A DNA stretch of 64,000 nucleotides, taken from positions 1 through 64,000 of IMG/VR virus record IMGVR_UViG_3300034061_000981, one strand, 5' to 3'. Shown here piece by piece: positions 32,784-64,000 of the stretch. The stretch is from a virus. The stretch's first letter is position 1; every line of letters begins with the position of its first letter. The notes beneath the pieces were generated by a model, which was given only the letters and a program-made list of their open reading frames with translations, searched no databases and was not told the DNA's origin. The translations under genes were made by a program, and so were the position numbers.

Positions 32784-32793
32784 GGAATAAAGA

Positions 32794-33747: not shown

Positions 33748-33768
33748 TTCTAACTAGTACATACTATA

Positions 33769-34753: not shown

Positions 34754-34761
34754 TCTAAATA
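34754..34761 (+). promoter_or_regulatory. Putative late promoter (TCTAAATA) heading the enzyme cluster
   Basis: TAAATA core in the 48-nt gap, followed by AGGAG and the ATG at 34777. Confidence 0.5.
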
Positions 34762-34776
34762 CTCGTAGGAGCCTAT

Positions 34777-35085
34777 ATGGATACAAAAACATTAATAGCA
34801 GAAGCCAAAGCTCGCTTCGCACATAACTCAGCTAAAGCATATCTTAAAGACAAATATGACAGCAAATTAATTGTTGCTGATCAAGGTGGTCTATGGCGAG
34901 CTGACCGACAAACCATTTCTTTTCTAAATTCAATGAGCAATGACAATTACATTGTTGTAATTGATACCTTTGATAACCCAGTTCAAGTTAGTCGTGAAAA
35001 GTTATTGGAAACATTAACAACTACATATAATGCAGTTATGCTTGAATGGCATAAAGAATGGTCTGAACTAGAGAAAAAAAGATGA
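34777..35085 (+). CDS. Hypothetical protein, possibly a tail-fibre assembly chaperone (DUF4376-like)
   Basis: 102 aa, strong ribosome-binding site. GGLWRAD...IDTFDNPVQV loosely recalls phage fibre chaperones; the function is tentative. Confidence 0.4.
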   Translation: MDTKTLIAEAKARFAHNSAKAYLKDKYDSKLIVADQGGLWRADRQTISFLNSMSNDNYIVVIDTFDNPVQVSREKLLETLTTTYNAVMLEWHKEWSELEKKR

Positions 35086-35885
35086 GCAAAGGTGCATTAC
35101 TATTTGCGTTTAATTCACCTAAGTACAACTACTATGAAATGGCAGTTGCTACAGCCAAACGAATTAATCATTTTTTAAATTTACCTGTTACTATAGTGAC
35201 TGATGAAAAGTCATTACCCGACGTTAGTGATTACACTTTTGATAAAACTATTCTAACTACAGCAGATGCGTCTAATAAACGTGATTGGGGAGTTTGGATC
35301 AATAAAGGAAGATTTCAAGCGTATGATTTAAGTCCATACGATGAAACGTTATTGTTAGATACTGATTATATGGTAAATTCTGATAAGTTAATAAAAACAT
35401 TTGAATTACCAACTGATTTTTGTTGCCACGACAATACTAGTTTTTTAATGCACCCCTCGGTTCCACAAGAGGTATTAAGTGTATATAGTTTCAAAACGTT
35501 ATGGGCTACAGCCGTTAATTTTAAGAAAACTAAACGTGCTAAATCAATATTTGATTCGTTAAAAATGATTCAAAATAATTTTGATCATTATGCAAACATA
35601 CATGGATTTATATCAGTTACTTTTCGCAATGATTATGCATTGACTTTAGCAACACGTATTGTCAACGGACACACCACAGTACCTGAAGATATAATACCTT
35701 GGAATTTAGTTCACGTTGGTAAAAATACAACAGTGTATAGAAATAGTGACGACCCATTAAACACCGAATATACTGTTATGTTTGATAATTGGGTTAGGGG
35801 TAAAATTCGTAAAGAATATACTATTATTAAAAATATGGATTTTCATGTTATGAATAAAGAAAACTTTATGGAGTTAATTAAATGA
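35082..35885 (+). CDS. GT-A fold glycosyltransferase-like protein (GT8-like)
   Basis: AYDLSPYDETLLLDTDY (DxD motif), WATAVNFKK, FRNDYALTLA, and a C-terminal HVMNK. Confidence 0.7.
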   Translation: MSKGALLFAFNSPKYNYYEMAVATAKRINHFLNLPVTIVTDEKSLPDVSDYTFDKTILTTADASNKRDWGVWINKGRFQAYDLSPYDETLLLDTDYMVNSDKLIKTFELPTDFCCHDNTSFLMHPSVPQEVLSVYSFKTLWATAVNFKKTKRAKSIFDSLKMIQNNFDHYANIHGFISVTFRNDYALTLATRIVNGHTTVPEDIIPWNLVHVGKNTTVYRNSDDPLNTEYTVMFDNWVRGKIRKEYTIIKNMDFHVMNKENFMELIK

Positions 35886-36637
35886 CAAGAGGATTTGTTA
35901 TTATGGCTCAGGGACAAGATTATGTCAAATGTGCCACTGCTCTTACGGCAAGTATAAAACGAGTTATGCCTAATGCTGATATAACCGTTGTTACTACAAA
36001 AATGTTGCCATATGGTGATCAGGCGCCCAATACTAATTGGAAACTTCAAAATGACTGGCAAGTATATGAAGCAAGTCCATATGACGAAACTATTAAATTA
36101 GAAGCAGATATGTACATACCACGCAACATTGACCACTGGTGGGATATATTGTCACCGCAGGATGTTGTAGTATCTAGTCATATAAGAAACTTTAAACAAG
36201 AAATATCGGATGTTAGAATGTATCGTAGATTTATTGATGACAATAATTTACCTGACGCATATAACGCAATTACATATTTTAAAAAGTCAGACACCGCAAA
36301 ACAATTTTTTAATATTGTAAGAGATGTTTTTGAGAATTGGGAAGAGTATAAGGAAATATTAAAATGTAATCCACAAGAAATAGCAACCACTGATTGGGCA
36401 TATGCTATTGCTTGTCATGTTATGGGCATTGAAAAAACAATGCTACCATCATTTACAGAAATGTCAATGGTACATATGAAACAATATATTAATGGAACAT
36501 CTACTGAAAATTGGACTGATACATTTATATATGAGTGTTTACCAAATCAAATTAGAGTACAAACAGTCCCACAACAGTATCCATTTCACTATCATATTAA
36601 GAACTTTTCTGATAAAATACTTGAAAGTATAAAATGA
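35882..36637 (+). CDS. GT-A fold glycosyltransferase-like protein, paralog of the preceding gene
   Basis: VYEASPYDETIKLEADM (ExD), YNAITYFKK, TTDWAYAIA and FHYHIK. Confidence 0.7.
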   Translation: MTRGFVIMAQGQDYVKCATALTASIKRVMPNADITVVTTKMLPYGDQAPNTNWKLQNDWQVYEASPYDETIKLEADMYIPRNIDHWWDILSPQDVVVSSHIRNFKQEISDVRMYRRFIDDNNLPDAYNAITYFKKSDTAKQFFNIVRDVFENWEEYKEILKCNPQEIATTDWAYAIACHVMGIEKTMLPSFTEMSMVHMKQYINGTSTENWTDTFIYECLPNQIRVQTVPQQYPFHYHIKNFSDKILESIK

Positions 36638-36990
36638 ACACTGAAAACAACCAAGAAGAATATGTTATAATATGGGAACAGCCCAAGCTAGAACCACCTG
36701 AGTTTAGGTTATATTATGATGAACACGGTGCTGTTGTATGTTACACCGGAGATAAATCTACAACCGGTGATTATATAGTTATTGATGCACTTACATTTGC
36801 ACAAGCAAGACCTGACGTAAGAGTTATCAACGGCAAAATATCTACTGTTTATCCCAATGCGGTTGTGCATAAGTTAATGCCAAGTAAGGATGAGGGGATA
36901 GATTGTCATCCGGAAGATATAAGTATACTTGTTGATAAAAAAGATTACAATAAAAAACAAAAATGGAAACTAACTACATATGAACTCTGA
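36634..36990 (+). CDS. Hypothetical protein
   Basis: 118 aa, overlapping both neighbours; no family recognised. Confidence 0.7.
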   Translation: MNTENNQEEYVIIWEQPKLEPPEFRLYYDEHGAVVCYTGDKSTTGDYIVIDALTFAQARPDVRVINGKISTVYPNAVVHKLMPSKDEGIDCHPEDISILVDKKDYNKKQKWKLTTYEL

Positions 36991-37933
36991 AGATATTATT
37001 GACGTAGCAGATTTAGATTGTATCTATCTAAGCTACGATGAGCCACAGAAAGAAGAATTCTGGCTAAAGATTAAGAACATGGTGCCTTGGGCAAAACGTG
37101 TTGACGGTGTTAAAGGTAGTGATGCCGCACATAAAGCCGCAGGTGAAGCAAGTGATACCGAACGATTTATTTTAATTGACGGTGATAATATGCCTGATGA
37201 AGAATTTTTCAATATTCAATTAAACTTTACTGGTAAAGACCCGTCGTTTAAAAAAGCACAGTTTCGTTGGAAAGCAATAAACGCAATCAACGGTTTACGC
37301 TATGGCAATGGCGGTATGAGTAGCTGGACAAAAGAATACGTTGCTAAAATGAAAACTCACGAACATCAAACAGATGGTGATGTATCACGCATTGCTGACT
37401 TCTGTATGGGAGGCAATGATAATTTGTATTGGGCGATGTATAACTGCTATAGCACAACACATCCTAACTATACGCCATTTCAAGCATGGCGCGCAGGATT
37501 CCGTGAAGGGGTAAAGATGAGTTTAGACAGAGGTGCTAGACCAACAGTAGAACAATTTAAACAAACAGTAGCAACACGTAATTTAAACAATCTAACTATT
37601 TGGCACAACATCGGTCGTGATGTAGAGAACGGAGAGTGGGCTATTTATGGTGCTCGTCTTGGAACGTATATGACTATGTTGACTGAATGGGACCACGCAA
37701 ATGTGCAATGGTTTGATAACTATACAGTATTGTGGGAAGAACATATGAATAGAGACCCTGATCGTGAGTCAGCGTTGCTCGGAGCCGCACTGCATGACAA
37801 ATTGGGACTACCGATGAACCACTTTGACAGTGGACAAAGTAAATTCTTTAAGCGTCACTATAAAGCAGACTTTCATAATTTAGATCCTCTAGTAACTGAG
37901 ATGGATGTGATTCGTAGAATCGAAGGATGGTAA
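36980..37933 (+). CDS. GT-A fold glycosyltransferase-like protein
   Basis: YLSYDEP, GVKGSDAAHKAA, FILIDGDN (DxD), YGNGG and QAWRAGFREGVKM. Confidence 0.6.
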   Translation: MNSEDIIDVADLDCIYLSYDEPQKEEFWLKIKNMVPWAKRVDGVKGSDAAHKAAGEASDTERFILIDGDNMPDEEFFNIQLNFTGKDPSFKKAQFRWKAINAINGLRYGNGGMSSWTKEYVAKMKTHEHQTDGDVSRIADFCMGGNDNLYWAMYNCYSTTHPNYTPFQAWRAGFREGVKMSLDRGARPTVEQFKQTVATRNLNNLTIWHNIGRDVENGEWAIYGARLGTYMTMLTEWDHANVQWFDNYTVLWEEHMNRDPDRESALLGAALHDKLGLPMNHFDSGQSKFFKRHYKADFHNLDPLVTEMDVIRRIEGW

Positions 37934-39327
37934 TGAGTAGCGAACAACAAAGAATTAAAGACATTAAGATTAAGATTGAGAACGAAGCAGGTCCTACATT
38001 TTGTCTTGCTAAATGGCATCACGTAACTATGTATTTGCAATCAGGTGAAACACATAGTTGTTATCACCCACAACCTCATAAAATTCCATTAGAAGAATTG
38101 AAAGATAATCCTTCAGCACTACACAATACACAATTCAAAAAAGATGAACGCAAAATGATGCTGGAAGGTGAAAAGCCAACAGGTTGTCAATATTGCTGGA
38201 ACATTGAAGCAATGGGCCCAGATTATATTAGTGATAGACACATTCGTAATGCTAGTATTTTTACAGAAGAACGCTATGAACAAACAACTAAAGGTGCATG
38301 GAATCAAAATATTAATCCAGAATACTTAGAAATCAACTTTGGTAACGAATGTAATTTCAAGTGCGGTTACTGTCATCCAAAATATTCAACTAGCTTTTAC
38401 AATGAGATTAAGAAGCATGGCCCTGTTACTACAGTAAAGAACCATCGTTGTGATGTTGATTGGATGACATTGTATCAGCGTGAAGAAGAAAACCCATACG
38501 TTGATGCATTCTGGGAGTGGTGGCCCGAACTACGCAAGACATTGAATATTATGCGTGTAACCGGTGGCGAACCTACGATGCACACTAGTACATGGAAATT
38601 GTTAAAAGAAATTGAACAAGATCCTATGCCTTGGTTAGAGTTGAATATAAACAGTAACTTAGGTACTAAGACTGCATTGGTTGAGAAACTAGCGCATAGT
38701 GTTAAAAAATTAGTAGACGATAAAAAAATTCGTGCATTCAAACTATTCACTAGCTTAGATACATGGGGTCCTAAGGCTGAATATATTCGTACAGGATTAG
38801 ATTTAGAATTGTGGGAAAAGAATTTCCATACGTATCTACAGAACACCGACAGCCCAATCACGTTTATGATTACTTTCAATATCTTTAGTGTTACTACATT
38901 TAAAGAATTCTTGGGTAAGTTTTTAGAATGGCGCAAACAATATGGTTGGTATGATGACCGAAAAGAACATCGTGTTCGGTTTGATACCCCTTACTTACGT
39001 GACCCTATTCAATACGATATGAACATTTTACCTAAGGACGAATTTATGCCTTACATGCGTGACGCATTATCATTCATGGAAGCTAATGTAGATGACAATC
39101 GTGCCGACGCATTTACTACTATTGAGTTTGAAAAATTCAAGCGTGTAGTTGACTACATGAATGAAACTAAATACTCAGACACAAAGTTAATTGAAGGTCG
39201 TAGAGATTTCTACAATTGGTTCAATGAATTAGATGAACGCAGGGATACAGATATGTTATCAGTTTTTCCTGAGTATATGAATTTTTATAGACTTTGCCAA
39301 GAAGTTAATCAATTGAATCCAAAATGA
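37933..39327 (+). CDS. Radical SAM enzyme with N-terminal twitch/SPASM-like Fe-S domain
   Basis: FCLAKW...HSCYHP...CQYC precedes CNFKCGYC and TGGEP. Start refined to the TAATG overlap. Confidence 0.9.
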   Translation: MSSEQQRIKDIKIKIENEAGPTFCLAKWHHVTMYLQSGETHSCYHPQPHKIPLEELKDNPSALHNTQFKKDERKMMLEGEKPTGCQYCWNIEAMGPDYISDRHIRNASIFTEERYEQTTKGAWNQNINPEYLEINFGNECNFKCGYCHPKYSTSFYNEIKKHGPVTTVKNHRCDVDWMTLYQREEENPYVDAFWEWWPELRKTLNIMRVTGGEPTMHTSTWKLLKEIEQDPMPWLELNINSNLGTKTALVEKLAHSVKKLVDDKKIRAFKLFTSLDTWGPKAEYIRTGLDLELWEKNFHTYLQNTDSPITFMITFNIFSVTTFKEFLGKFLEWRKQYGWYDDRKEHRVRFDTPYLRDPIQYDMNILPKDEFMPYMRDALSFMEANVDDNRADAFTTIEFEKFKRVVDYMNETKYSDTKLIEGRRDFYNWFNELDERRDTDMLSVFPEYMNFYRLCQEVNQLNPK

Positions 39328-40598
39328 GCAAGAAAAAAACTAAAATAACAGTTGAAGATTTATCTACTAGTAAGACACTATGTGTTGTGCCATGGATACA
39401 TATCCACACTAATCCTAGTGGCATTGCTACTCCTTGCTGTATCGCAGAATCGTGCACCAAACCCGAAGGTGTAGGAAACGCACGTGAACAATCATTGATG
39501 GAAATTGTTAATTCTGAATCAATGAAACAATTGCGTTTAGATATGTTAGCCGGAGTTAAAAATTCTGAATGTACCAAATGTTATGAACATGAGGATCAGG
39601 GTATAAAAAGTTTTAGAAATATGATTAACGATGAATTTAGTCATCACTATGATGCTATGAATTCAACAAAGAAAGATGGATCACTCAAAGAATTTAAAAT
39701 GAGATACTTTGATATCCGTTTTAATAACATTTGTAATTTTAAATGTAGAACATGTGGTTCAGGATTTAGTACTCAATGGGAACAAGAAGATTTAAAAAAT
39801 AAAGTTTGGAATGCAAAAGTCATTCCAAAGAATGATAATAAAAAATTCTTAGCAGAGGTAGTGGATCAAATTCCAAATATGGAAACAGCATACTTTGCCG
39901 GTGGCGAGCCACTAATTACCGAAGAACATTATATTCTACTAGAAGAAATGATTCGTAGTGGCAAGACTGATATCAAACTAAGATATAATACTAACTTAAG
40001 CAATCTTAAATTTAAAGACAAAGACCTGTTGTCCTTGTGGAAACACTTTGAAAAGGGTGTAGATGTTTATGCAAGTATTGACCATTACGGTGAACGTGCA
40101 GAATATATTCGTCACGGAACTGATTGGGGTGTAGTTGAATCTAACTTCAACTTAGTTAAAAAAACATCCTTCATAAAACTACACATGAATACCGTATTAA
40201 GTGTATTCAACGTTTTAACTATAAATGAATTCTATCAGTATCTATATGATAATAATATGTACTCAAACAAAGATTCAGTATATATGTTATATAATATGTC
40301 AACTCCGGAATTTTTAGCATGTCATATATTGCCACCTGATTTAAAAATCAAAGCTAAAGAAAGTTTAGAACAGACTGTTAAGTTTTTAAAATCTAAAAAA
40401 TTTAAAGTACACCAAATAAAACAGATAACAGATGCTATTCCTTGGGCTATGTCTAAGGATTCTTGGGAACAACAAAAAATGAATTTTAGAAGTGAAGTCA
40501 AAAGATTAGATAAAATTAGAGATGAAAACTTTAAACAGACATTTCCTGAATTAGCTATGTTATTAGAACCCGAATACAAAAGATTGTGGCCAGTATGA
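39324..40598 (+). CDS. Radical SAM enzyme with N-terminal twitch/SPASM-like domain
   Basis: LCVVPW...PCC...CTKC, CNFKCRTC and AGGEP. Confidence 0.9.
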   Translation: MSKKKTKITVEDLSTSKTLCVVPWIHIHTNPSGIATPCCIAESCTKPEGVGNAREQSLMEIVNSESMKQLRLDMLAGVKNSECTKCYEHEDQGIKSFRNMINDEFSHHYDAMNSTKKDGSLKEFKMRYFDIRFNNICNFKCRTCGSGFSTQWEQEDLKNKVWNAKVIPKNDNKKFLAEVVDQIPNMETAYFAGGEPLITEEHYILLEEMIRSGKTDIKLRYNTNLSNLKFKDKDLLSLWKHFEKGVDVYASIDHYGERAEYIRHGTDWGVVESNFNLVKKTSFIKLHMNTVLSVFNVLTINEFYQYLYDNNMYSNKDSVYMLYNMSTPEFLACHILPPDLKIKAKESLEQTVKFLKSKKFKVHQIKQITDAIPWAMSKDSWEQQKMNFRSEVKRLDKIRDENFKQTFPELAMLLEPEYKRLWPV

Positions 40599-41845
40599 AC
40601 AAAGATTATCTATCCAAGATGAACAAAAATTATTTATTAAACGAGAGCAAGACTTTTTGCATGTTCCCTTGGGTACATTTAAATGTGACACCAAAAGGTG
40701 ATATCTATCCTTGCTGTAGTAACGACTACACAAAACCATTTGGTAATACAAAAGAAACTTCATTAAAAGAAGCATTCAACAGTCCGCAAATGAAACAGTT
40801 GCGTTTGGACATGTTAGCTGATAAGAAAAATGATATATGTAACTTTTGTTATAAACACGAAGAAGCAGGACCTCATTCATTTAGAAACTATAGCAAAGAA
40901 CAATTTGCTAAACACTATGATGAAACAATTCCTACAACACTAGATGACGGAACTGTTCCCGAATTCAAAATGCATTATTTTGATATTCGTTTCAGTAATA
41001 TTTGTAACTTTAAATGTAGAACATGCGGGTCAGAGTTTAGTAGTCAATGGGGAGCAGAGATGCGAGCCAATCACGATCCAAAACATCCTATTGTTATTCA
41101 TGCCGATGAAAAGGGTAATCTATTACGTGAAGTATTGGAACAAGTAGAACATATTGATTTAGCATACTTTGCTGGTGGTGAACCTACATTGACCGAAGAA
41201 CATTATATAATGCTTGAAGAAATGATTCGTAAAGGTCGTAGTGATATTGTTCTACGATACAACACTAACGCTAGTAACATTAAGTTCAAAGACTATGACT
41301 TACTAGATATGTGGAAGTACTTTAAAAAGATTGAATTGAGTTGTAGTATTGACCATTATGGTGAAAGAGCAGAATGGTTACGTCATGGAACTGATTGGGG
41401 TGTAGTAGAGTCCAATCTATTAAAGTTCCGTGAACTAGATTATGTTAGTTTTCAAATGAATACGGTATTCAGCATCTTTAACTATAGTACAATCGGTGAG
41501 TTCTATCAGTATTTAAAAGATAAGAATATTATCCGCAGAGAAGATTGGTATCATAGTTTGTACTTGGCTGTACACCCTAGCTATTATTCTGGTAAGAGTT
41601 TGCCCAAAGAATTAAAAGTAGAAGCCGCAGAAAAGGCATTGGCTTGGGCAAAGGCTAATGAAGGTGATGGTACATCACTAAGTAGATTAGTGACTGATGC
41701 TGTAAACTTTGCGGCAGATGATGATACTTGGACTGAAAATAAAGAAACATTCTTTTTACATACAGGTTCAGGAGATAGAATTCGAGGTGAAAGTTTCTGG
41801 AAAACGTTTCCTGAATTAAATAAATTACGTGATTTAACGGAGTAA
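40595..41845 (+). CDS. Radical SAM enzyme with N-terminal twitch/SPASM-like domain
   Basis: FCMFPW...PCC...CNFC, CNFKCRTC and AGGEP. Start refined to the ATGA overlap (alternative ATG at 40619). Confidence 0.9.
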   Translation: MNKDYLSKMNKNYLLNESKTFCMFPWVHLNVTPKGDIYPCCSNDYTKPFGNTKETSLKEAFNSPQMKQLRLDMLADKKNDICNFCYKHEEAGPHSFRNYSKEQFAKHYDETIPTTLDDGTVPEFKMHYFDIRFSNICNFKCRTCGSEFSSQWGAEMRANHDPKHPIVIHADEKGNLLREVLEQVEHIDLAYFAGGEPTLTEEHYIMLEEMIRKGRSDIVLRYNTNASNIKFKDYDLLDMWKYFKKIELSCSIDHYGERAEWLRHGTDWGVVESNLLKFRELDYVSFQMNTVFSIFNYSTIGEFYQYLKDKNIIRREDWYHSLYLAVHPSYYSGKSLPKELKVEAAEKALAWAKANEGDGTSLSRLVTDAVNFAADDDTWTENKETFFLHTGSGDRIRGESFWKTFPELNKLRDLTE

Positions 41846-41847
41846 TA

Positions 41848-43119
41848 ATGCAAGATTCAATTGTTGTAGAAAATTTAGTAAAACATGGTAAACATTTTTG
41901 TGTGTTACCCTGGGTCCACTTTCATTCATGGCCAGATGGTCGAGTGATGCCATGTTGTGTTGCTGACAGCGGAATGCCTGTAGCTGAAATAAAAGAAGAA
42001 GAATCAATCATCCAAATGATGAATAGTGATGACTTCAAAAAGATTCGTTCAGCTATGCTTAACGATGAACCAGTAGAAGCGTGTAAGCGTTGCTATGACT
42101 TAGAGTTAATGGGTACATGGACAATGCGTCAAAGTCACAATAAGCGCAAAGGTCTTGAATACGTCAAAGAAATTAGTGAAATAACAAGTGATGACGGTAC
42201 CATTAGTGACTTTAAAATGAAATACATGGACTTACGTTTTAGTAACATGTGTAATATGAAATGTCGCAGTTGTGGCCCTGGTTGCTCAAGTCTATGGGCA
42301 CAAGAATTTTTAGACGAACGAGGTGAAGAAGTATTTGAACAATACTTCAAAACAAAAAAGATTGTTATTAACAAAGCAGATGAAGTTGGATTCTTAGCTA
42401 AACTAAAACCATACTTGAAAGACGTTACTGAAGTATATTTTGCTGGTGGTGAAATTATTATTACTCCTGAACACTATGAGTGTTTAGACTATTGGATTGA
42501 TAACGGATTGAACGAACAGATTGAGTTAACATACACAACTAACTTTAGCTCATTGAAGTACAAAGACAAAGACTTAATCGGTTATTGGAAGAAGTTTCCC
42601 AAGCTCAAAATTTGGGCTAGCTTAGACGGCATGGGCGAGACAGCAGAATTGATTCGTAAAGGTACTGACTGGGATCGTATTGTTAAAAACATCAAAGCAG
42701 TTAAAGAACAAGTGCCACATGCTGAGTTCCAAATCACTCCTACAATTAGCATCTGGAATGTGTTCCACTTCCCTGACTTTTTTGACTACATGATTGACAA
42801 TGGGTTCATTGATACTAAGAGTAGCCCGCGTTTTAATCTAGCAACTAATCCATGGTACGCAAACATTATGATTCTTCCTGTGTCTGTTAAGCGCAGACTA
42901 GCTGAATTATATCGTGTATATCAGAACAAGTATAAAGACAACCAAGATATCTATAACGGCTTTAAGATGATTATCTACAATTTGACAGTTGGTGATGAAA
43001 ACAAAGGTGGTATCTTAGAATTTAAACAGTTCAACGATGAGTTGGATCAATTTAGAGATGAGAAGTTTGAGGACATTTGTCCAGAAATTAAAGAGGTATA
43101 TGAATGGGCAAAAAGCTAA
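41848..43119 (+). CDS. Radical SAM enzyme with N-terminal twitch/SPASM-like domain
   Basis: FCVLPW...PCC...CKRC, CNMKCRSC and AGGEI. Confidence 0.9.
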   Translation: MQDSIVVENLVKHGKHFCVLPWVHFHSWPDGRVMPCCVADSGMPVAEIKEEESIIQMMNSDDFKKIRSAMLNDEPVEACKRCYDLELMGTWTMRQSHNKRKGLEYVKEISEITSDDGTISDFKMKYMDLRFSNMCNMKCRSCGPGCSSLWAQEFLDERGEEVFEQYFKTKKIVINKADEVGFLAKLKPYLKDVTEVYFAGGEIIITPEHYECLDYWIDNGLNEQIELTYTTNFSSLKYKDKDLIGYWKKFPKLKIWASLDGMGETAELIRKGTDWDRIVKNIKAVKEQVPHAEFQITPTISIWNVFHFPDFFDYMIDNGFIDTKSSPRFNLATNPWYANIMILPVSVKRRLAELYRVYQNKYKDNQDIYNGFKMIIYNLTVGDENKGGILEFKQFNDELDQFRDEKFEDICPEIKEVYEWAKS

Positions 43120-44072: not shown

Positions 44073-44073
44073 A

Positions 44074-57254: not shown

Positions 57255-57282
57255 ATTAAGTTTTATAGTATAATTTTAATAG

Positions 57283-57290
57283 ATTAAATA
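57283..57290 (+). promoter_or_regulatory. Putative internal late promoter (ATTAAATA)
   Basis: TAAATA core in the only sizeable gap of the enzyme cluster, followed by TAAGGAG and a TTG start. Confidence 0.45.
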
Positions 57291-57314
57291 CTACTTGAAG
57301 TAAGGAGATATTGT

Positions 57315-59597
57315 TTGGATTCAAACACCGATTCGAAGGTAGTTCTAAAAGAAAGACCCACAGCAGATGTTGCAGATGAACGTCATCAAGCGATGATGGA
57401 TGCCATTGCGCCCTATGCTAAAAAATCTATACAGAAAAATTTAACTCCAGTATATGTAGATTATAAAACACGCAACACAAAAATGGTATTGGTATTGTGC
57501 CCTGAATGGTCACCTTACATGCCTCCGTTTTCGTTAGCAAAACTATCCGGAATTGCTAAAGCTGCCGGATATGAAACAAATATTATAGATTTGAATGTTA
57601 GAGCATACAATGCTCATAAAAACGATTGGAGACCAAATAACAAATTACCCTTTAGGTTGTGGGATCCAGCCGCAAGTTGGCACTGGTTGGGTGACACGTA
57701 TTCCAAAGATATTCACCCTGTACTAGAACCATTACTCTCACAAGCTATTGATGAAATTGTTGCAATGAAGCCTGACGTTGTTGGCTTTAGTGTTTATTAC
57801 ATTAGTGAAGAACCCACTAAGTGGATGTGCCAAGAGTTAAAGCGTAGACTACCTAATGTAAAGATTGCAGTAGGCGGCCCTAATGTACATAAACATTGGT
57901 TTGCAATTCACGATTACTATGACTATGTTATTGTAGGTGAGGGTGAAAACAATCTATTAGTCATGCTTGATGAAATTGAAGAAAAGATTGAAGTTCAATA
58001 TCCACGAGTATTAACACAACCTGAAGACCAGCGTATCAATATTAACAATTTGCCGATGCCAGACTATGAAAGTATTGACTTCTCACAGTATGAGATGCCA
58101 AATGGTATCAACAGTGAAATTAGTCGAGGTTGTACAGCTAAATGTACATTCTGTGAAGAAACACACTTCTGGAAATATCGTCAACGTCAAGCAGTTGATT
58201 TGATTACAGAGATTGAGTGGTTATATTACAATAAAGGTACTGATGTTATTTGGTTTATTGATAGTCTTATTAATGGTAATATCAATGAACTTAGAGCATT
58301 TGCATTAGCACTCAAAAATAAAAATTTAGAGGTTAAATTTGCAGGTTATGCACGACATGATGGTCGTATGGATAAAGCATACTTGAAAGATTTAGCAGAT
58401 GGTGGTTGTTTGCGATTTAACTTTGGTAGTGAATCCGGAAGTCAAAAAGTATTAGACGATATGGCTAAGGGTGTGACTATTAAAGAGATGGAACAAAACT
58501 TTATTGATTGTAAAGAATTGGGTATAGGAAGCGATACTAACTGGATTGTAGGATTCTCCACTGAGGATTATCAAGACTACTCAGATACAATGACATTACA
58601 ATGGCGTATGCGTGAAAATATTAGTAACATGGGTTTAGGGGTAGGCTTTGCAGTAGGTCCAGAAACTATTGTAGGACAGAATCCACATAGATTTAATGTT
58701 AGCTATCATAAGTATCAGAATCATTGGATTACTAATGATTTATCTAAAGGTGGTACACACATTATGATGCGTGTGAAAAATATTCACATATGGGCTGACT
58801 TAATATCACATTGCAAAGAAGGTCCGGCAACCACATATCCAGTTCGTTTCGCACTAGCACAAAAGCATTATAAGATTAAATTTAATGATCCGCTATGCCG
58901 TAAAGAGATGAATTATGAAAAATTTGATTATGATATCATTCCACCGGTAGATCCTAACAATAAATTTGCAAATCAGCTTGTGAATGAAATATGGCCATTA
59001 TTAAGAAATATTTGGAGAGCAAGAGGCGGATATGAAGCAGAGATACTTTTTAATCCTGAACTTGATTTAGTAGAATTTGGATCGCAATTTGGTCCGGGTA
59101 TGTTTAATGCCGTATATAAGTTTAAGATTAGTGATGATGGAAAGTGGGAAGCAGACTTTGATATGCACTTTAATCAACATATTGATAACCCAGAAGATAA
59201 TAGATTACCTCCTCCAGAAGGTCGTAGGGGTCCTTTCTATGCACAAGATTATTCAAGGGCACAATCTAATACAGTTAAACGTGCTAGAAGATTAGCAAAA
59301 CCAAAATGGTCAGATGAAAAAGGTCGTAGTGGTCAAGACTTTACTGATTTATTAAATGAAGAAGAATATTTAAATAAAAATATAGATTTTACCTTTGACC
59401 TACATTATGTAGGCACTGGTGATTGGGGTAACTATGCTGATTATGAAGTAAAAGTATCTGATAAGAAACGTGATGCTATTCCTGAAAAAGAAGTAATGTA
59501 TATACCTAAAGTACCTGTGTCCCCAGTAGTTCCTGAAATTGCTACAATTGATATTTCTCAGATTAAAAAAAGTAGAAGACCATTGTTTCCAGTATGA
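57315..59597 (+). CDS. Cobalamin-binding radical SAM enzyme, copy 2, with long C-terminal extension
   Basis: PPFSLAKL, PDVVGFSVY, VGGP, GEGE, SRGCTAKCTFC and FGSESGSQKVLDDM.KG. TTG start with a strong ribosome-binding site. Confidence 0.88.
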   Translation: MDSNTDSKVVLKERPTADVADERHQAMMDAIAPYAKKSIQKNLTPVYVDYKTRNTKMVLVLCPEWSPYMPPFSLAKLSGIAKAAGYETNIIDLNVRAYNAHKNDWRPNNKLPFRLWDPAASWHWLGDTYSKDIHPVLEPLLSQAIDEIVAMKPDVVGFSVYYISEEPTKWMCQELKRRLPNVKIAVGGPNVHKHWFAIHDYYDYVIVGEGENNLLVMLDEIEEKIEVQYPRVLTQPEDQRININNLPMPDYESIDFSQYEMPNGINSEISRGCTAKCTFCEETHFWKYRQRQAVDLITEIEWLYYNKGTDVIWFIDSLINGNINELRAFALALKNKNLEVKFAGYARHDGRMDKAYLKDLADGGCLRFNFGSESGSQKVLDDMAKGVTIKEMEQNFIDCKELGIGSDTNWIVGFSTEDYQDYSDTMTLQWRMRENISNMGLGVGFAVGPETIVGQNPHRFNVSYHKYQNHWITNDLSKGGTHIMMRVKNIHIWADLISHCKEGPATTYPVRFALAQKHYKIKFNDPLCRKEMNYEKFDYDIIPPVDPNNKFANQLVNEIWPLLRNIWRARGGYEAEILFNPELDLVEFGSQFGPGMFNAVYKFKISDDGKWEADFDMHFNQHIDNPEDNRLPPPEGRRGPFYAQDYSRAQSNTVKRARRLAKPKWSDEKGRSGQDFTDLLNEEEYLNKNIDFTFDLHYVGTGDWGNYADYEVKVSDKKRDAIPEKEVMYIPKVPVSPVVPEIATIDISQIKKSRRPLFPV

Positions 59598-60184
59598 ACT
59601 CGGTAGAACATTTTGAGAAAATAGTTGCAGAATATTACAATGCACCATATGCGATAGCAACTGATTGTTGCACACATGCAATTGAATTGTGTTTGCGACT
59701 TACTGAGCCTGTGTATGTTAAATGCCCTAATCATACATATCTCAGTATTCCAATGACGTTCAGTAAGTTAAAACTTCAGTGGAATTTCACTGACGAAAAA
59801 TGGCAAGACTACTACACTATTACCAATACTAATATTATAGATGCCGCCGTTTATTGGAAAAAGAATAGCTATATCAGAAACACATTGATGTGCTTGAGTT
59901 TTCAATATAAGAAACATTTGAACATTGGTCGTGGTGGTATGATTCTACTTGACAATACAGAACAGTATGAACAATTACTAAAGATGCGATATGACGGTAG
60001 GTTAGACAACATACCCTGGGCAGAGCAAGACATTGATATAATAGGATATCATTATTACATGACTCCTGAAAATGCTGATATCGGTATTGAGAAATTTAAG
60101 ACAGCAAGTATAACAGAACCTAAACAATGGTCATATAAAGATTATCCTGATTTAAAGAAAATGAAAGTGTTCAATGCTAAGTAA
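59594..60184 (+). CDS. Shortened DegT/DnrJ/StrS-family PLP aminotransferase-like protein
   Basis: FEKIVAEYY...AIATDCCTHA, IIDAA, SFQYKKHLNIGRGG (Schiff-base Lys region) and GYHYYM; only 196 aa. Confidence 0.75.
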   Translation: MNSVEHFEKIVAEYYNAPYAIATDCCTHAIELCLRLTEPVYVKCPNHTYLSIPMTFSKLKLQWNFTDEKWQDYYTITNTNIIDAAVYWKKNSYIRNTLMCLSFQYKKHLNIGRGGMILLDNTEQYEQLLKMRYDGRLDNIPWAEQDIDIIGYHYYMTPENADIGIEKFKTASITEPKQWSYKDYPDLKKMKVFNAK

Positions 60185-61145
60185 AAACGAATGGGATCCA
60201 CTACAATCAGTTATTGTAGGTATTGCTGATGATGCTAAGATTCCTAAACTTGATACTAGTTTACGTTGTGTAAACTATGCAGACTTACAGTCTACAATAC
60301 AAGTTGGTAACTATCCGCAACAAGTTATTGACGAAGCAAACGAAGATTTAAATAATTTAGTATCATTCTTAGAGGGTGAAAGTGTCACAATATACAGACC
60401 TAACACAAAGTTTGTGCCTGAGTATTATAACTACTGCCCACGTGATACTGTGTTAGTGCATGATGACTTAATATTAACTACACCTAATCCTTTACGAGCA
60501 AGACAAACAGAACATCTTGCTATGTTAGATACACTAAAAGAACACGGTAGTGTTATTACTAAATTGCATTCTGGTCATGAAAGTCTGTACAATACAAATT
60601 GTGTAGGTAATCCAAATATACTTGCATTGAATGAGACTGAGCCTGCGTTTGATGCGGCAAACATATTGCGTTCAAATGATGATTTGTTTTATCTAGTAAG
60701 TAATAGTGGTAATAAAGCTGGCGCTAAATATCTGCAAGAATTATATCCTGATAAGAAGGTTCATACGATTGAAGGTGTGTATAGTTATATGCACTTAGAT
60801 AGTACAATTGCATTATTGCGTGAGGGATTGATGTTACTGAATCCTGCACGTATTAAGAGTATTGAACAACTACCCAAACCATTGCAATCATGGGATGTTA
60901 TTTGGGCGCCCGAGCCAGTTGATATTGGTCATTACCCGGGATACTGCAATGCTAGTACATGGGTAAGTATCAATTTGTTTAGTGTTAATCCTAACTTAGT
61001 TATAGTTGAAGAACACCAAAACAACTTGCGTAGTGAATTAGAAAAATATAATATAGAATGTGCTATGTTACCAATGCGTCACGCACGAACACTGGGAGGA
61101 TGCTTTCATTGTGTAACACTAGATTTAATTAGGAATCATGTATGA
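60174..61145 (+). CDS. Amidinotransferase (inosamine-phosphate/glycine amidinotransferase family)
   Basis: NEWDPL, YCPRD, FDAAN, SGN..G, HLDST and GGCFHCVTLD; the Asp-His-Cys triad is intact. Confidence 0.9.
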   Translation: MLSKNEWDPLQSVIVGIADDAKIPKLDTSLRCVNYADLQSTIQVGNYPQQVIDEANEDLNNLVSFLEGESVTIYRPNTKFVPEYYNYCPRDTVLVHDDLILTTPNPLRARQTEHLAMLDTLKEHGSVITKLHSGHESLYNTNCVGNPNILALNETEPAFDAANILRSNDDLFYLVSNSGNKAGAKYLQELYPDKKVHTIEGVYSYMHLDSTIALLREGLMLLNPARIKSIEQLPKPLQSWDVIWAPEPVDIGHYPGYCNASTWVSINLFSVNPNLVIVEEHQNNLRSELEKYNIECAMLPMRHARTLGGCFHCVTLDLIRNHV

Positions 61146-62914
61146 AAGAAAAATGGAAAAGAGGTCATTTTGGAAGATTCTGGGACCTTAATGAGTTTAA
61201 AAAATTTGATTATGTTCGTCAACCCATTACTGCTGAAGAAGTAGCTGAGTGGGAATCACAGGGCTATGACCATGTTAAAAGTTTTACTGGTCAAATGTAT
61301 GACAATAGAAACCCTATGCCTGATTGGATACAAACCTTTAAGGGTCTTTTTCTTACGTATAAAAATATGACATTTACTTTCTATAAGATGAGTACATTAG
61401 AAATAATGCCAGAGCACTCAGATCATTATAGAACGTATATAAAAATGTTTGATGCTAAAAGTGAAAATGTTCATCGTATTTTAGTAATGCTTGAAGATTG
61501 GAAACCGGGTCATTATTTAGAAATTGATGGGGTTGGGATTACCAATTGGATTGCAGGAGATTACTTTATGTGGCGCGCCGATTGTAAACATGCCGCCGCA
61601 AATATAGGCATAGAAGATAGGTATACATTACAAATAACATGTGAAGAAGTTGAAATTACTGACACATGGAATACGTTACATTGGTATAATATTCCCGATA
61701 TGATCTCTAGGGATAGTTCTTATCTATATTATATGGATCGCATTTTAAGTTTTATACCAAAGGATATTAGTACTAATCCAATGTTCATTTATATGTTTAA
61801 CGAAAACATAAATGAATTAGAAAATATAACACATGATGACTTTGCTATAAATGAATTAAACAATAAAGGTTTAACAATTTATTTAACGGAACCTTTATGT
61901 AGCTATCTAGTAGGAGCCCCACAATGGCATCCACCTAAAGGAACTAAACATAATATGATGTTTTACTCTGAGTTTGAAGGTTTTGAACGCCCCCAACAAT
62001 TTAGAGCAGATGAATTGGATAGCATTGAAAGATATGTAATTAGAAATCAATTAACAAATGTAAAAGTTTATACATGTGACTATGATGCAAAAAAATGGTA
62101 TCCGTACTATTCAGATTTTATGCAAATTGGTTATGATGATTTGTTTGTAAAATCTGTATTACCTAAAAAGATTTACAATCCAGAAGTAGAACCTAATTTT
62201 ACTAAAAAATTTATTTGTTTAAATTGGAGATATACTCCACATAGACAAATGCTAGCGGCATATGTCGCTCCCCTATCAAGTCATGTCAGTTGGTATTTTA
62301 GAGGCGAGTTGGGAATTGTGGGACGGCAATATTGGTGTGATATATTTAACATTCAAATGCGTGACCCGGAAGTGTTTGGTAAATTAATAGCCGGTGTCGA
62401 ATATTTAAATATACATTCTCCTATGAATGTTGATTTAAATCTTACAGAACCAGTTACTATATTACATTCATATTTTAGACATTGCATGCCTAATGGCACA
62501 CTATTTGACCATACTAAAGGTGAATTAGATGAAAATAAGATGGAAGAATCATATAGAGATGTGTTTTGCGATATTGTTACTGAATCAAGATTTGCACAAC
62601 CAACCGGCAATTATAGCGAAAAAACGTTTCACCCTATGTGGTTTAAGAAGCCCTTTGTGTTGGCTGCACCTCCTAACACATTAAAGTTATTAAAAGAGCA
62701 TGGCTTTAAAACATTTAGTGATTTTTGGGATGAGTCATATGATTCAATTACTATACACGAAGAACGTTTATTAAAGATTTTTGAAGTAATTGATTTTATT
62801 AATAATAAATCAATAGAAGAACTACAAGAAATGTATGTTCAAATGAAACCAATATTAGAACACAATTACAATTTAATAAAAGAAAAATTACCACCAATTG
62901 GGATACAAAAATGA
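61142..62914 (+). CDS. Fusion protein: 2OG-Fe(II) oxygenase-like domain plus TEK-family glycosyltransferase (copy 7)
   Basis: N-terminal PEHSD...DWKPGH...HAAANIG..RYTLQIT (HxD..H..R pattern); C-terminal FICLNWRYTPHR, DIVTES, YSEKT, KPF and DESYD. Confidence 0.75.
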   Translation: MKEKWKRGHFGRFWDLNEFKKFDYVRQPITAEEVAEWESQGYDHVKSFTGQMYDNRNPMPDWIQTFKGLFLTYKNMTFTFYKMSTLEIMPEHSDHYRTYIKMFDAKSENVHRILVMLEDWKPGHYLEIDGVGITNWIAGDYFMWRADCKHAAANIGIEDRYTLQITCEEVEITDTWNTLHWYNIPDMISRDSSYLYYMDRILSFIPKDISTNPMFIYMFNENINELENITHDDFAINELNNKGLTIYLTEPLCSYLVGAPQWHPPKGTKHNMMFYSEFEGFERPQQFRADELDSIERYVIRNQLTNVKVYTCDYDAKKWYPYYSDFMQIGYDDLFVKSVLPKKIYNPEVEPNFTKKFICLNWRYTPHRQMLAAYVAPLSSHVSWYFRGELGIVGRQYWCDIFNIQMRDPEVFGKLIAGVEYLNIHSPMNVDLNLTEPVTILHSYFRHCMPNGTLFDHTKGELDENKMEESYRDVFCDIVTESRFAQPTGNYSEKTFHPMWFKKPFVLAAPPNTLKLLKEHGFKTFSDFWDESYDSITIHEERLLKIFEVIDFINNKSIEELQEMYVQMKPILEHNYNLIKEKLPPIGIQK

Positions 62915-63669
62915 AAGAAAAAATATTATTAATTGCAGGCTGTAGTCATGCCGCCGGAAGTGAGATTGACGGGAGTGAGGATAGTGAATACAATAGACAC
63001 CACTGTTTTGGTAGTGAGTTAGCATCAAAATTAGGTCGTAAACCTATCAATATGTCAATTGCAGGCAATACTAATAGTGGTATAGCAAGAAGTATACTTA
63101 AGTGGTTTTCTGCAAATTATAACCCTAAAAAGATAGATGTTATAGTATTAGTAGCTTGGACTGACAGTACACGAATGGAAGCCCCTGTAACAGAATTATG
63201 TAATCCTCCCCAGCCTTGTTACGCTAATTGGCTCGATATAACCTGTTCTAACTTTTTTAGGTCAACTATGGGTTATGAAGGTGATAAAAACAAACCCGGC
63301 GAAGTTGAAAGAATAAAAAGCATACAAAGATTTATAGCAGAAAATGAACAAATGGTTGAAATTATGTCTATAAACTATGTATTACAAATACAATATTTTT
63401 TACAATCAATAAAAGTAAATTATTTGATGTGTAATACAATGCCTATATTTATGGACCATACCAAGCATTTGGGATATTATTTAAATCTTATTGATGCGAC
63501 TAAATATTATGGTATATACAACAGTGAAGAAGCATTTTTTCCTAAATATAGAAAAGAAGGCTATGTCAATCCAAAAGCAAAATATTGGCATCACGATGAA
63601 ATCCCACATCAACTGTTTGCAGAAGAATTATACAACTTTATACAGGAGAACAAAAATGTTCATAGTTAG
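62911..63669 (+). CDS. SGNH/GDSL-like hydrolase or O-acyltransferase, copy 3
   Basis: AGCSHAAG, NMSIAGNTNSGI, VAWTD..R.E and C-terminal WHHDEIPH. Confidence 0.6.
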   Translation: MKEKILLIAGCSHAAGSEIDGSEDSEYNRHHCFGSELASKLGRKPINMSIAGNTNSGIARSILKWFSANYNPKKIDVIVLVAWTDSTRMEAPVTELCNPPQPCYANWLDITCSNFFRSTMGYEGDKNKPGEVERIKSIQRFIAENEQMVEIMSINYVLQIQYFLQSIKVNYLMCNTMPIFMDHTKHLGYYLNLIDATKYYGIYNSEEAFFPKYRKEGYVNPKAKYWHHDEIPHQLFAEELYNFIQENKNVHS

Positions 63670-63754
63670 ATGGTTTAAAAATTTAGTTAGAGAATACAAG
63701 TACCGCAAGCGCATTAAAGAATTACGCAAACGAGATCCATTTATTTACAAATGA
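63656..63754 (+). CDS. Small basic 32-aa protein (MFIVRWFKNLVREYKYRKRIKELRKRDPFIYK)
   Basis: CAGGAG ribosome-binding site at 63643-63648; the stop overlaps the next ATG (ATGA). The track start at 63491 is probably too long. Confidence 0.65.
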   Translation: MFIVRWFKNLVREYKYRKRIKELRKRDPFIYK

Positions 63755-64000
63755 ACTATATCGGTATAAGTGCAGGCTTCCATGATGCGGCCCTAAGCGT
63801 CATAGATAGTAACGGCAATATTGTCTTTGCTGGTCATAGTGAACGCTACAGCAAACAAAAACATGACAAACATTTGTCAATGGGTATTGTTGAGGATGCG
63901 TTAACTTATTGTAACGATGAAGTTGAGATTCACTATTACGAACGTCCAGGGATGAAGTTTTTGCGACAATTACGTTCAGGTGAAAAGCCTAAACTATCTA
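63751..64000 (+). CDS. Carbamoyltransferase, NodU/CmcH/TobZ family (3'-partial)
   Basis: Manual translation gives MNYIGISAGFHDAALSVIDSNGNIVFAGHSERYSKQKHD...HYYERP, the family N-terminal signature. The frame is open to the window end. Confidence 0.88.
   Translation, partial: MNYIGISAGFHDAALSVIDSNGNIVFAGHSERYSKQKHDKHLSMGIVEDALTYCNDEVEIHYYERPGMKFLRQLRSGEKPKLS

Follow-up and report, generated by a model that had tools for sequence, protein, structure and literature searches.

The window analysed here is the first 64 kb (64,000 nucleotides) of a 107,619-bp IMG/VR virus contig from an uncultured freshwater phage (IMGVR_UViG_3300034061_000981; CheckV completeness 30%), and from position 34,777 onwards it carries a gene cluster for which a phage-encoded pathway of glycan assembly and tailoring is well supported. 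We read this cluster as a late, fibre-linked glycan operon of a T4-like jumbo phage (34,777-71,967) whose most probable acceptor is a virion protein; this fuller reading is held tentatively and falls somewhat short of an even chance. Taken together, the enzymes make sense as a set for the production and transfer of modified sugars. The open reading frame (ORF) listing gives 27 co-oriented ORFs on the + strand from 34777 to 64000, the last one cut by the window end, and neighbouring ORFs are joined by 1-41 nt overlaps or 0-2 nt gaps. When a 32-codon ORF is included the cluster has 28 genes and a sole gap longer than 2 nt, at 57255-57314 (60 nt), exactly as counted in the initial annotation of the window, a note made from the letters alone. 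Past the window end the operon extends to 71,967 (~37 kb and ~31 genes in all) with a carbamoyltransferase (63751-65244), a 1896-aa repeat protein (65255-70945) and a glycosyltransferase (70942-71967), and it is followed by a 663-nt gap with a transfer-messenger RNA (tmRNA) and then a porin gene. All cluster features given below lie on the + strand.

The cluster begins behind the same type of box as the structural genes. A late-promoter-like box, TCTAAATACT (34754-34763, +), lies 14 nt before the ATG of the first cluster gene with an AGGAG at 34767-34771 in between, and an internal TAAATA box (57285-57290, +) is located in the only gap longer than 2 nt. Genes with the pattern (A/G/C)TAAATA(C/T) 12-30 nt ahead of them are 8103 (baseplate), 31548 (fibre), the first and the 57315 genes of the cluster, the 90494 terminase gene and its large neighbours 88814 and 92064; less than one occurrence would be expected by chance at those positions. 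We compared the region with 80 related loci and four near-complete genomes (G001, G002, G003 and G005; CheckV 95-100%). Among 79 relatives the TAAATA box before the first cluster gene is kept, at -21 to -24 in 76 and elsewhere upstream in the other three, and the exact 10-mer TCTAAATACT recurs in 66 of the 79 with a variable flanking spacer, which bears out the initial claim of a box common to the structural genes and the cluster. Near-consensus TTGACA-N17-TATAAT (sigma70-like) sequences stand ahead of small non-structural genes at contig positions 74700-77700 and 98750-99850. Two promoter classes are thus legible in the sequence, TAAATA for the structural genes and the cluster versus TTGACA-N17-TATAAT. 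The T4 late promoter is TATAAATA, and because the TAAATA box resembles it the cluster is probably transcribed late.

The genes around the cluster point to a T4-like jumbo phage, because the contig encodes a gpV-type spike and gp25 and, farther along, a T4-type large terminase, gp32, a UvsX-like RecA and UvsW, and because the near-complete relatives measure 335-352 kb. Upstream of the cluster come the gpV-type spike (OB domain), gp25, a 1123-aa wedge-type protein, a 6408-aa ORF and three fibre-type genes (31548-34728, +; weak match to the Peptidase_G2 intramolecular chaperone), which are candidate acceptors. Two of these, 32794 and 33769, are paralogs that are 66% identical and contain 25-28% Ser+Thr. 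The 6408-aa ORF (window 11503-30729), between the baseplate and fibre genes, encodes an acidic protein (isoelectric point (pI) 4.3) with 19.5% Ser+Thr, and its similarity to PA5oct-type virion structural proteins is only partial. Ralstonia phage RsoM2USA (343.8 kb) is the nearest isolate and the only one having the core of the cluster; in its virions ten gel bands were identified, and its homologue of the giant protein, ORF361, was detected by mass spectrometry (PMC8504454).

Most of the transferases in the cluster belong to one paralogous GT-B family of eight proteins or domains, seven inside the window and the eighth (70942) outside it. In order, these are a 439-aa protein (44074-45393, 387 bits with the family hidden Markov model (HMM)), a 341-aa protein (46364-47389) and a 378-aa protein (50187-51323), both recognised by paralog alignment and the family HMM, two proteins of 333 and 347 aa (52135 and 53129, together 52135-54172), residues ~57-372 of the 55365-57254 product and residues 344-590 of the 61142-62914 product. 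The last two are fusions: 55365 ends in an MTS-type S-adenosylmethionine (SAM) methyltransferase with an NPPH motif, of the N-methyltransferase (amino-methyltransferase) type, and 61142 begins with a domain resembling 2-oxoglutarate (2OG) oxygenases (residues 2-166). None of the eight matches a Pfam family at E 0.01 or better, the family profile finds no PDB sequence and a GenBank phage search with one paralog returned zero matches; some 190 relatives of the family are found in the same kind of contigs. The AlphaFold2 (AF2) model of the 52135-53136 product (pLDDT 93.5) adopts a GT-B fold. Foldseek ranked WaaG and the H. pylori alpha1,3-fucosyltransferase first for this model, and VIA-align placed T4 beta-glucosyltransferase (BGT; 1c3j) on top (Z 10.9, root-mean-square deviation 4.3, 253 residues, 9% identity), followed by FUT11 (Z 9.7), a chlorovirus transferase, FUT9 (Z 9.3) and T4 alpha-glucosyltransferase (Z 9.1). 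The GT10 fold matches (H. pylori FucT, FUT9 and FUT11, Z 8.9-9.7) are level with many other GT-B enzymes, and none of the eight paralogs belongs to GT10 by sequence profile (PF00852). The invariant residues of the family are R128, E197 and E207-K208, that is an Arg and a (T/S)EK pair, which may correspond to the GT10 motif F.V.(S/T)E..........TEK. On the model and these motifs the paralogs may be GT10-like. A separate observation is that G+C is 0.28-0.30 in window 50000-54000, where the third to fifth paralogs lie, versus 0.33-0.40 elsewhere, with strand skews unaltered.

The top fold match, together with that to T4 alpha-glucosyltransferase, is also what one would expect if the enzymes decorated phage DNA bases before packaging and thereby defeated restriction, as is the fusion of one paralog to an amino-methyltransferase-type domain with NPPH; moreover, DNA-hypermodification loci also vary between close relatives. 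The Z values of the GT10 fucosyltransferases are however within ~1-1.5 of the BGT value, the transferases are acidic and the locus, with its late-type promoter, belongs to the fibre module. Each relative, the closest complete one included, has a single ThyA homologue, which PDB comparison identifies as a canonical thymidylate synthase; the Asn that specifies dUMP is present in G003 and G005, so that no supply of 5-hydroxymethylcytosine or 5-hydroxymethyluracil (hmC/hmU) is visible. No TET/JBP or 2OG_Oxy_3 match above cut-off was obtained in the source contig (30% complete), G001 or G003, and classical hmC/hmU glycosylation was set aside, no supply enzyme having emerged from these ThyA and TET/JBP searches. 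Eight transferases also far exceed any DNA sugar modification known to us. DNA hypermodification, which the initial annotation regarded as the main alternative, is weakened by the canonical ThyA, the missing TET/JBP and the acidic transferases, yet the best fold match is still T4 beta-glucosyltransferase; we consider it very unlikely. Independently of this argument, the thymidylate synthase of G001 (L138, 95204-96097) has an Asp at the position of E. coli ThyA Asn177 (GDTHIYQDH), which is not the case in G003 or G005 and was left unused as evidence; the Asn177 to Asp change is known to shift ThyA from dUMP to dCMP as its substrate.

The cluster opens with a conserved five-gene head that ends in a GT-A enzyme. 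Its first gene (34777-35085) encodes a 102-aa protein that has no Pfam or PHROG match and occurs in 79 of the 80 relatives with 50-80% identity. The next two, 35082 (267 aa) and 35882 (251 aa; together 35082-36637), are distant paralogs assigned to phrog_1903, with homologues in RsoM2USA (ORF353/352), and carry a GT8-like SPYDET..LDTDY / LEADM motif that makes them candidate GT-A enzymes at motif level. Their profile gives chance-level matches only against PDB, and hhalign with the GT-A family lined up the DxD regions with a probability of just 1.7%. The fourth gene (36634-36990) encodes a 118-aa protein without a family match that is present in 80 of 80 relatives. The fifth (36980-37933) encodes a GT-A fold glycosyltransferase with a DxD motif (ILIDGDN) and is the best conserved gene of the region (77-88% identity across the 80 relatives); clustering of its family in public metagenomes gives more than 8000 groups at 90% identity, or 1134 when the threshold is 50%, and distant long relatives carry fused GT1/GT28 domains. 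The family profile produced chance-level matches only against PDB sequences. The AF2 model of 36980 (pLDDT 93.2) gave SunS, BcsA and PBCV-1 A64R as top Foldseek matches, the best being the peptide glycosyltransferase SunS, and VIA-align matched residues 5-165 to B4GALNT1, SunS, WrtF and SpsA at Z 8-9.5. Out of the ten glycosyltransferase-like domains initially annotated, the eight formed by the seven in-window GT-B members and 36980 are upheld, and the other two, 35082 and 35882, stay at motif level. The core genes are very widespread, and the cultured phage RsoM2USA, with a minimal core, makes the question of their function directly testable.

Seven radical SAM enzymes, every one with CxxxCxxC, are encoded in the window, in agreement with the number first annotated. 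Four of them (37927-39327, 39324-40598, 40586-41845 and 41848-43119) are N-terminal-twitch enzymes that belong to NCBIfam NF033640, with scores of 320, 384, 371 and 370 bits against a curated cut-off of 170. In all four the Pfam SPASM domain is N-terminal to Radical_SAM and four invariant N-terminal Cys accompany the CxxxCxxC, an arrangement that NF033640 shares, with its auxiliary-cluster cysteines N-terminal to the CxxxCxxC core. The weak secondary NCBIfam matches of these enzymes comprise MoaA, viperin and ArsS as well as sactipeptide, ranthipeptide and dynobactin maturases. A fifth enzyme (43104-44072, 322 aa) has CNFKCSYC at residue 25, a Cys-rich C-terminus and weak matches to Radical_SAM, viperin and MoaA. 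The remaining two are B12-dependent: 48230-50200, of KedN5-like C-methyltransferase type (Pfam B12-binding and Radical_SAM), which scores 248 bits against NF033712, under the cut-off of 700, and 57315-59597 (760 aa; Pfam B12-binding 45.5 bits, Radical_SAM 56 bits). NF033640 is a catalogued family without a characterised member, and here it forms tandem arrays of 1-16 genes in phages and on Bdellovibrionota chromosomes. With up to 16 genes per genome, these arrays amount to a large and as yet unexploited source of radical enzymes, whose chemistry probably concerns sugars.

The order of genes shared by the 80 loci and the four genomes is the giant protein, a 206-aa protein, the fibres, 34777-35082-35882-36634-36980, a variable module and a repeat protein. 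The constants of this frame are the five-gene head ending in the GT-A gene, at least one N-twitch radical SAM gene and a terminal giant repeat protein (1380-2298 aa in relatives), which ends the island in all four near-complete relatives examined and whose last domain is a 36980-like GT-A that has lost its DxD. In the source phage this 1896-aa protein (contig 65255-70945) contains ~17 repeats of ~70 aa with the pattern NW.VP.NID.S.FDFSWHPD..PPYIY.FGTQW..GGP.Y.V.GATE.KY, then degenerate copies, then the GT-A domain, in which FAK replaces DGD; the protein has no family match and an ESM Atlas search of the repeat region returned no usable match. The middle varies greatly. The variable module of G003 is much like that of the source phage, in G005 it consists of radical SAM genes only, in G002 it measures ~7 kb with four radical SAM genes, and G001 has 16 N-twitch radical SAM genes and a carbamoyltransferase and no GT-B. 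RsoM2USA shows a minimal form (ORF346-354): its giant protein and fibres are followed by the two 35082/35882 homologues, the GT-A gene (ORF350), one N-twitch gene (ORF349) and another gene of GT-A-like type. We also counted the first ~10 kb downstream of the GT-A gene in the 57 loci with at least 9 kb after it, and found N-twitch genes in 57 of 57 (1-7 each) and GT-B paralogs in 29, with 28 loci missing them. The glycosyltransferase-rich set is consequently not the conserved part, one relative having 16 radical SAM genes and no GT-B paralog. The tail linkage was borne out, synteny of the frame being common to all relatives. For that reason, and because the nearest relatives are phage contigs, capture of a host locus in the recent past was rejected: hundreds of related phage contigs hold the closest homologues, and no bacterial homologue of the radical SAM genes exceeds ~38% identity, apart from two closer matches in metagenome bins (L085 and L133) that are short phage-like fragments. 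The island is present in more than 400 viral contigs.

This distribution raises the alternative that the conserved role is protein maturation without a glycan core, in which the radical SAM arrays would introduce cross-links or other edits into a structural protein, for instance the fibres or the terminal protein with its repeats rich in aromatic residues and proline, and the sugar enzymes would be lineage additions. N-twitch genes are in 57 of 57 relatives and GT-B genes are not, the relative with 16 such genes has no GT-B, the secondary matches include sactipeptide, ranthipeptide and dynobactin maturases, and the terminal protein offers ~17 repeats of FDFSWHPD..PPYIY.FG. However, the GT-A gene is conserved even better than the radical SAM genes and always adjoins them, the other secondary matches (MoaA, viperin and ArsS) act on nucleotides and sugars, and the number of radical SAM genes does not track the length of the repeat protein. 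We therefore rate maturation without a glycan as highly improbable.

The glycan reading draws further on the enzymes that would make and tailor the sugars. 45390-46367 encodes a nicotinamide adenine dinucleotide (NAD)-dependent nucleoside diphosphate (NDP)-sugar epimerase/reductase of the short-chain dehydrogenase/reductase (SDR) type (PF01370, 146.9 bits), whose best NCBIfam match is GDP-fucose synthase, under the cut-off. 54172-55365 encodes an NDP-sugar 6-dehydrogenase of the UDP-glucose / GDP-mannose dehydrogenase family (PF03721 and PF00984; 146 bits against TIGR03026, under the cut-off of 189.8). A mini DegT-type pyridoxal phosphate protein of 196 aa (59594-60184; PF01041, 55.4 bits) keeps the SFxxxK Schiff-base lysine in the PDB alignment; that it might be a pseudogene was rejected, the same short form being present with 54% identity in the cultured cyanophage S-SCSM2R (ORF305). 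The 60174-61145 product is a StrB1-type amidinotransferase (PDB 1bwd, E 6.9e-63, residues 4-320) that belongs to the StrB1/AGAT family by full-length homology, is 57% identical to S-SCSM2R ORF309 and has near its C-terminus a GGCFHC that is presumably the catalytic Cys motif of these enzymes. At 63751-64000, and on to contig 65244, lies the start of a carbamoyltransferase of the NodU/CmcH/TobZ family with both Pfam domains above their cut-offs (PF16861 164.4 bits, PF02543 123.1 bits). The epimerase, the dehydrogenase and the amino-, amidino-, carbamoyl- and methyltransferases of the initial annotation are accordingly all backed by Pfam matches and PDB 1bwd. Directly before the carbamoyltransferase, a 32-codon ORF (63656-63754) with its own AGGAG overlaps the stop of the preceding gene and, through ATGA at its own stop, the start of the carbamoyltransferase gene; the basic peptide that it specifies ends in YRKRIKELRKRDPFIYK. 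The C-terminal motif of the peptide is kept in relatives and in the metagenome-bin loci L094 and L120, directly before a carbamoyltransferase in L094, and the peptide is missing from relatives without the carbamoyltransferase.

Such enzymes are also found in aminoglycoside tailoring, and a distinctly unlikely alternative is that the product is a free or peptide-bound metabolite, either an aminoglycoside-like cationic pseudo-oligosaccharide or a glycosylated, radical-SAM-edited peptide built on the 32-aa peptide, which could serve as a counter-ion packaged with the DNA or be directed at the host or at rival phages. The StrB1-type amidinotransferase, the DegT protein and the TobZ/NodU carbamoyltransferase match this, and we assume a similar likeness between the B12 radical SAM methylases and the GenK/KedN5 type and between the twitch enzymes and BtrN. 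The best Foldseek match of the GT-A enzyme is a peptide glycosyltransferase, SunS, and the ORF for the conserved basic peptide is coupled in translation to the carbamoyltransferase gene, its motif recurring in L094 and L120, which may be phage. Yet Pfam shows no cyclitol synthase, kinase, exporter, leader protease or resistance gene, with about a dozen ORFs having no family match; the peptide is absent where the carbamoyltransferase is absent, its conserved part contains no Ser, Thr or Cys, and eight transferases are many for a small molecule. More generally, aminoglycoside tailoring (StrB1, BtrN, GenK, TobZ and DegT-type transaminases) brings together the same enzyme classes and differs in that no cyclitol former (DOIS or inositol-phosphate synthase), kinase, exporter or resistance gene is found here among the ORFs with a family match, and in that eight transferases point to a longer chain.

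In the glycan pathway that we propose, the NDP-sugar dehydrogenase, the epimerase and the radical SAM enzymes would turn host NDP-sugars into unusual donors, one or more GT-A enzymes would start a chain on a soluble acceptor, and the eight GT-B paralogs, which may be GT10-like, would lengthen this chain, the sugars of which would then be aminated, amidinated, carbamoylated, C- and N-methylated and perhaps acylated or deacylated. The chemistry of this toolkit would include oxidation to uronic acids, epimerisation/reduction, transamination and the transfers of eight GT-B and one to three GT-A enzymes, and the product would be a strain-specific, partly cationic oligosaccharide. The acceptor would be made at the same time, the candidates being the fibres with their many Ser and Thr residues, the giant protein of 6408 aa and the terminal repeat protein, so that the phage would bear its own variable sugar coat. 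The evidence for a virion acceptor is circumstantial. It is favoured because the cluster has its promoter class in common with the virion genes, because the fibre linkage is strict (the fibre-side position is common to 80 of 80 related loci, to the four near-complete relatives and, in minimal form, to the distant RsoM2USA), because the products all appear soluble and the transferases acidic (pI 5.5-6.9), and because the fibres are rich in Ser and Thr (25-28%). We accordingly favour a virion protein as acceptor, then the host surface, then a free or peptide-bound product and finally DNA.

O-antigen glycosyltransferases typically have no membrane segments and are soluble or peripheral. This matters because a Kyte-Doolittle scan of all cluster proteins found no 19-residue stretch with a mean of at least 1.6 and no predicted membrane segment, so that all cluster products are predicted to be soluble, and because neither a flippase nor a polymerase is among the Pfam-scanned cluster ORFs. 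The initial annotation had observed both, and they stand, as does its description of a late-type, fibre-joined operon of soluble enzymes for glycan assembly and tailoring; its deduction of a cytoplasmic acceptor from the missing membrane protein is weaker than stated, because soluble O-antigen transferases could use host lipid-linked intermediates together with host exporters. In that case the phage would remodel the host surface: its soluble enzymes would act on undecaprenyl-linked O-antigen or capsule intermediates, a host flippase and ligase would export the products, and the surface change in a long latent period would block superinfection and keep progeny off debris. The lack of membrane segments is compatible with this, given what is typical of O-antigen transferases; the island is as hypervariable as O-antigen loci are, and a porin gene (72631-73512) is on the contig. 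Host modification is also the published reading of the fibre-adjacent islands with glycosyltransferase, Ugd and radical SAM genes (PMC7029224) and of the cyanophage 'LPS' (lipopolysaccharide) clusters (PMC12801897). In contrast, no priming phosphoglycosyl transferase, flippase, polymerase or ligase is among the scanned cluster ORFs, the promoter is of the late type used for virion genes when exclusion functions would be expected early, and neither the terminal giant repeat protein nor the strict fibre linkage would have a role. Host-surface remodelling is therefore, in our judgement, unlikely.

Several points weigh against a virion glycan. Lipid-linked intermediates of the host could just as well be the substrates of the soluble transferases, the late timing rests on the resemblance of a motif, and the related S-SCSM2R sub-cluster is not adjacent to tail genes. 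Among the four relatives whose entire island was examined, three lack GT-B paralogs, and because these paralogs are often absent, one relative having 16 radical SAM genes and only the GT-A enzyme, the conserved function may not be oligosaccharide assembly; the weak secondary matches of the NF033640 enzymes, in addition, include peptide maturases beside MoaA and viperin. A bolder form of the virion-glycan reading is that the product is a strain-variable, cationic viral 'O-antigen' on the fibre or baseplate of a tailed phage with a Gram-negative host, edited by the N-twitch radical SAM enzymes on NDP-sugars or on the assembled glycan, and that the fibre-side islands of many aquatic T4-like phages are virion-coat factories and do not modify the host surface; we regard this as possible but doubtful. 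If the product is a virion glycan, phage self-glycosylation would extend from mycobacteriophages to abundant aquatic jumbo phages. Fibre-side 'LPS genes' would then also have to be read differently, and the result would be relevant to particle stability, to the evasion of defences and to host range.

The cluster had been put forward as a candidate new system, a claim that we cannot uphold since both fibre-adjacent islands with glycosyltransferase and radical SAM genes and the S-SCSM2R cluster have already been described (PMC7029224, PMC12801897). The host recognition cluster (HRC) of T4-like pelagimyophages and cyanomyophages is a hypervariable fibre-adjacent island of the structural region (Zaragoza-Solas et al. 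2020) that holds glycosyltransferases, UDP-glucose dehydrogenase-type genes and radical SAM cassettes differing between close relatives, genes that were read as host O-chain modification (PMC7029224). The source island resembles it in belonging to a T4-like phage, in having a hypervariable middle beside the tail fibres and after a giant structural gene, and in its glycosyltransferases, LPS-type sugar genes and radical SAM cassettes. It differs in that the source lineage is jumbo (~350 kb) with RsoM2USA as nearest isolate, in that the 6408-aa protein matches only PA5oct-type virion proteins and no VrlC record, and in that the island has a fixed frame and is one tight operon behind a conserved late-type box. 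Unlike the HRC it closes the structural block instead of preceding the neck genes, the tmRNA, the porin and sigma70-type early genes lying downstream. The sugar/'antibiotic' cluster of the cultured, T4-like Synechococcus phage S-SCSM2R (PQ898602; ORF301-310) contains DegT, radical SAM, amidinotransferase and glycosyltransferase genes (PMC12801897). It shares with the source cluster the mini-DegT (54%, ORF305), the amidinotransferase (57%, ORF309) and the 2OG-oxygenase-like domain (32%, ORF308), but it is much shorter, lies away from the tail genes and has neither a carbamoyltransferase nor a giant repeat protein, and the GT-B paralogs and N-twitch arrays are missing from it as well. In 2017, attention had been drawn to a marine genome of the T4-like type that contains 12 radical SAM genes (PMC5332604). 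Particular to the present case are the lineage, the single tight 37-kb operon, the frame with its terminal repeat protein, the eight-member GT-B family and the N-twitch arrays.

Glycosylation of virions by viral enzymes provides two looser comparisons. Mycobacteriophage-encoded glycosyltransferases beside structural genes reportedly decorate capsid and tail proteins (work attributed to Freeman et al., Cell Host Microbe, 2023, as cited in PMC12801897), and as here these soluble phage-encoded enzymes adjoin structural genes. That system differs in having two to four genes, simple glycans, Actinobacteria hosts and no sequence relation to the present one, and the glycans were demonstrated there, whereas here we have the genes alone. 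The glycosylation of Mimivirus fibrils and of the PBCV-1 capsid is similar in that sugars are synthesised in the cytoplasm by virus-encoded enzymes, independently of the host, and transferred to virion proteins, and A64R is among the fold matches of the GT-A enzyme; this likeness is at fold level only, and these are viruses of eukaryotes without radical SAM enzymes.

The cluster also contains genes for which assignments are weaker. The first domain of 61142 is 32% identical to S-SCSM2R ORF308, annotated as a 2OG-Fe(II) oxygenase, and shows an HSD...H (HxD...H) pattern, so that it is a weakly supported candidate resting on a borrowed annotation and a motif. Three SGNH proteins are weakly supported candidates as well, on GCS / GxND / DxxH-like motifs. 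These are a 294-aa protein (47386-48270) that is SGNH-like by its GCS..GQND..DGAH motif (PF00657 GDSL, E 0.13; no PDB match), a 273-aa protein (51320-52141) with an N-terminal GCS motif that is SGNH-like at most and matches no family, and a DUF6071-like protein (62911-63669) with an N-terminal GCS motif (PF19547, 26.9 bits against a cut-off of 27). For the oxygenase and the three SGNH proteins of the initial annotation, support is thus limited to motifs or to borrowed annotation. For the remaining unassigned ORFs, searches of Pfam, PHROGs and NCBIfam were mostly blank even to E 10, about a dozen ORFs having no family match.

Some observations concern hosts and neighbouring loci. A Bacteroidota host, suggested by missing Shine-Dalgarno sites, was dropped because AGGAG precedes the operon-leading genes and the nearest isolate infects Ralstonia. 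Two short contigs in Flavobacteriaceae and Crocinitomicaceae bins (L085 and L133) are fragments of the same phage lineage: they match the radical SAM genes with identities as high as 78%, include pieces resembling 36980 and 65255, and are likely to reflect binning contamination rather than to be evidence of a host. Tandem arrays of 4-8 N-twitch genes are carried by L120, L123, L087, L089 and L124, which come from Bdellovibrionota and, in one case, from a gammaproteobacterial bin; the neighbours of L123 and L098 are clearly chromosomal, and the Bdellovibrionota arrays adjoin genes for Obg, a nucleotidyltransferase and a histidine kinase. In L120 the array is accompanied by genes for a nucleosidase, a 2OG oxygenase, a GT-A-like protein and a B12 radical SAM enzyme and by the peptide motif, and this locus may be of phage origin itself. 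Finally, the porin encoded just past the island and the tmRNA (contig 72631-73512) is of the Gram-negative type (PF13609, 73 bits), with relatives at 46-63% identity.

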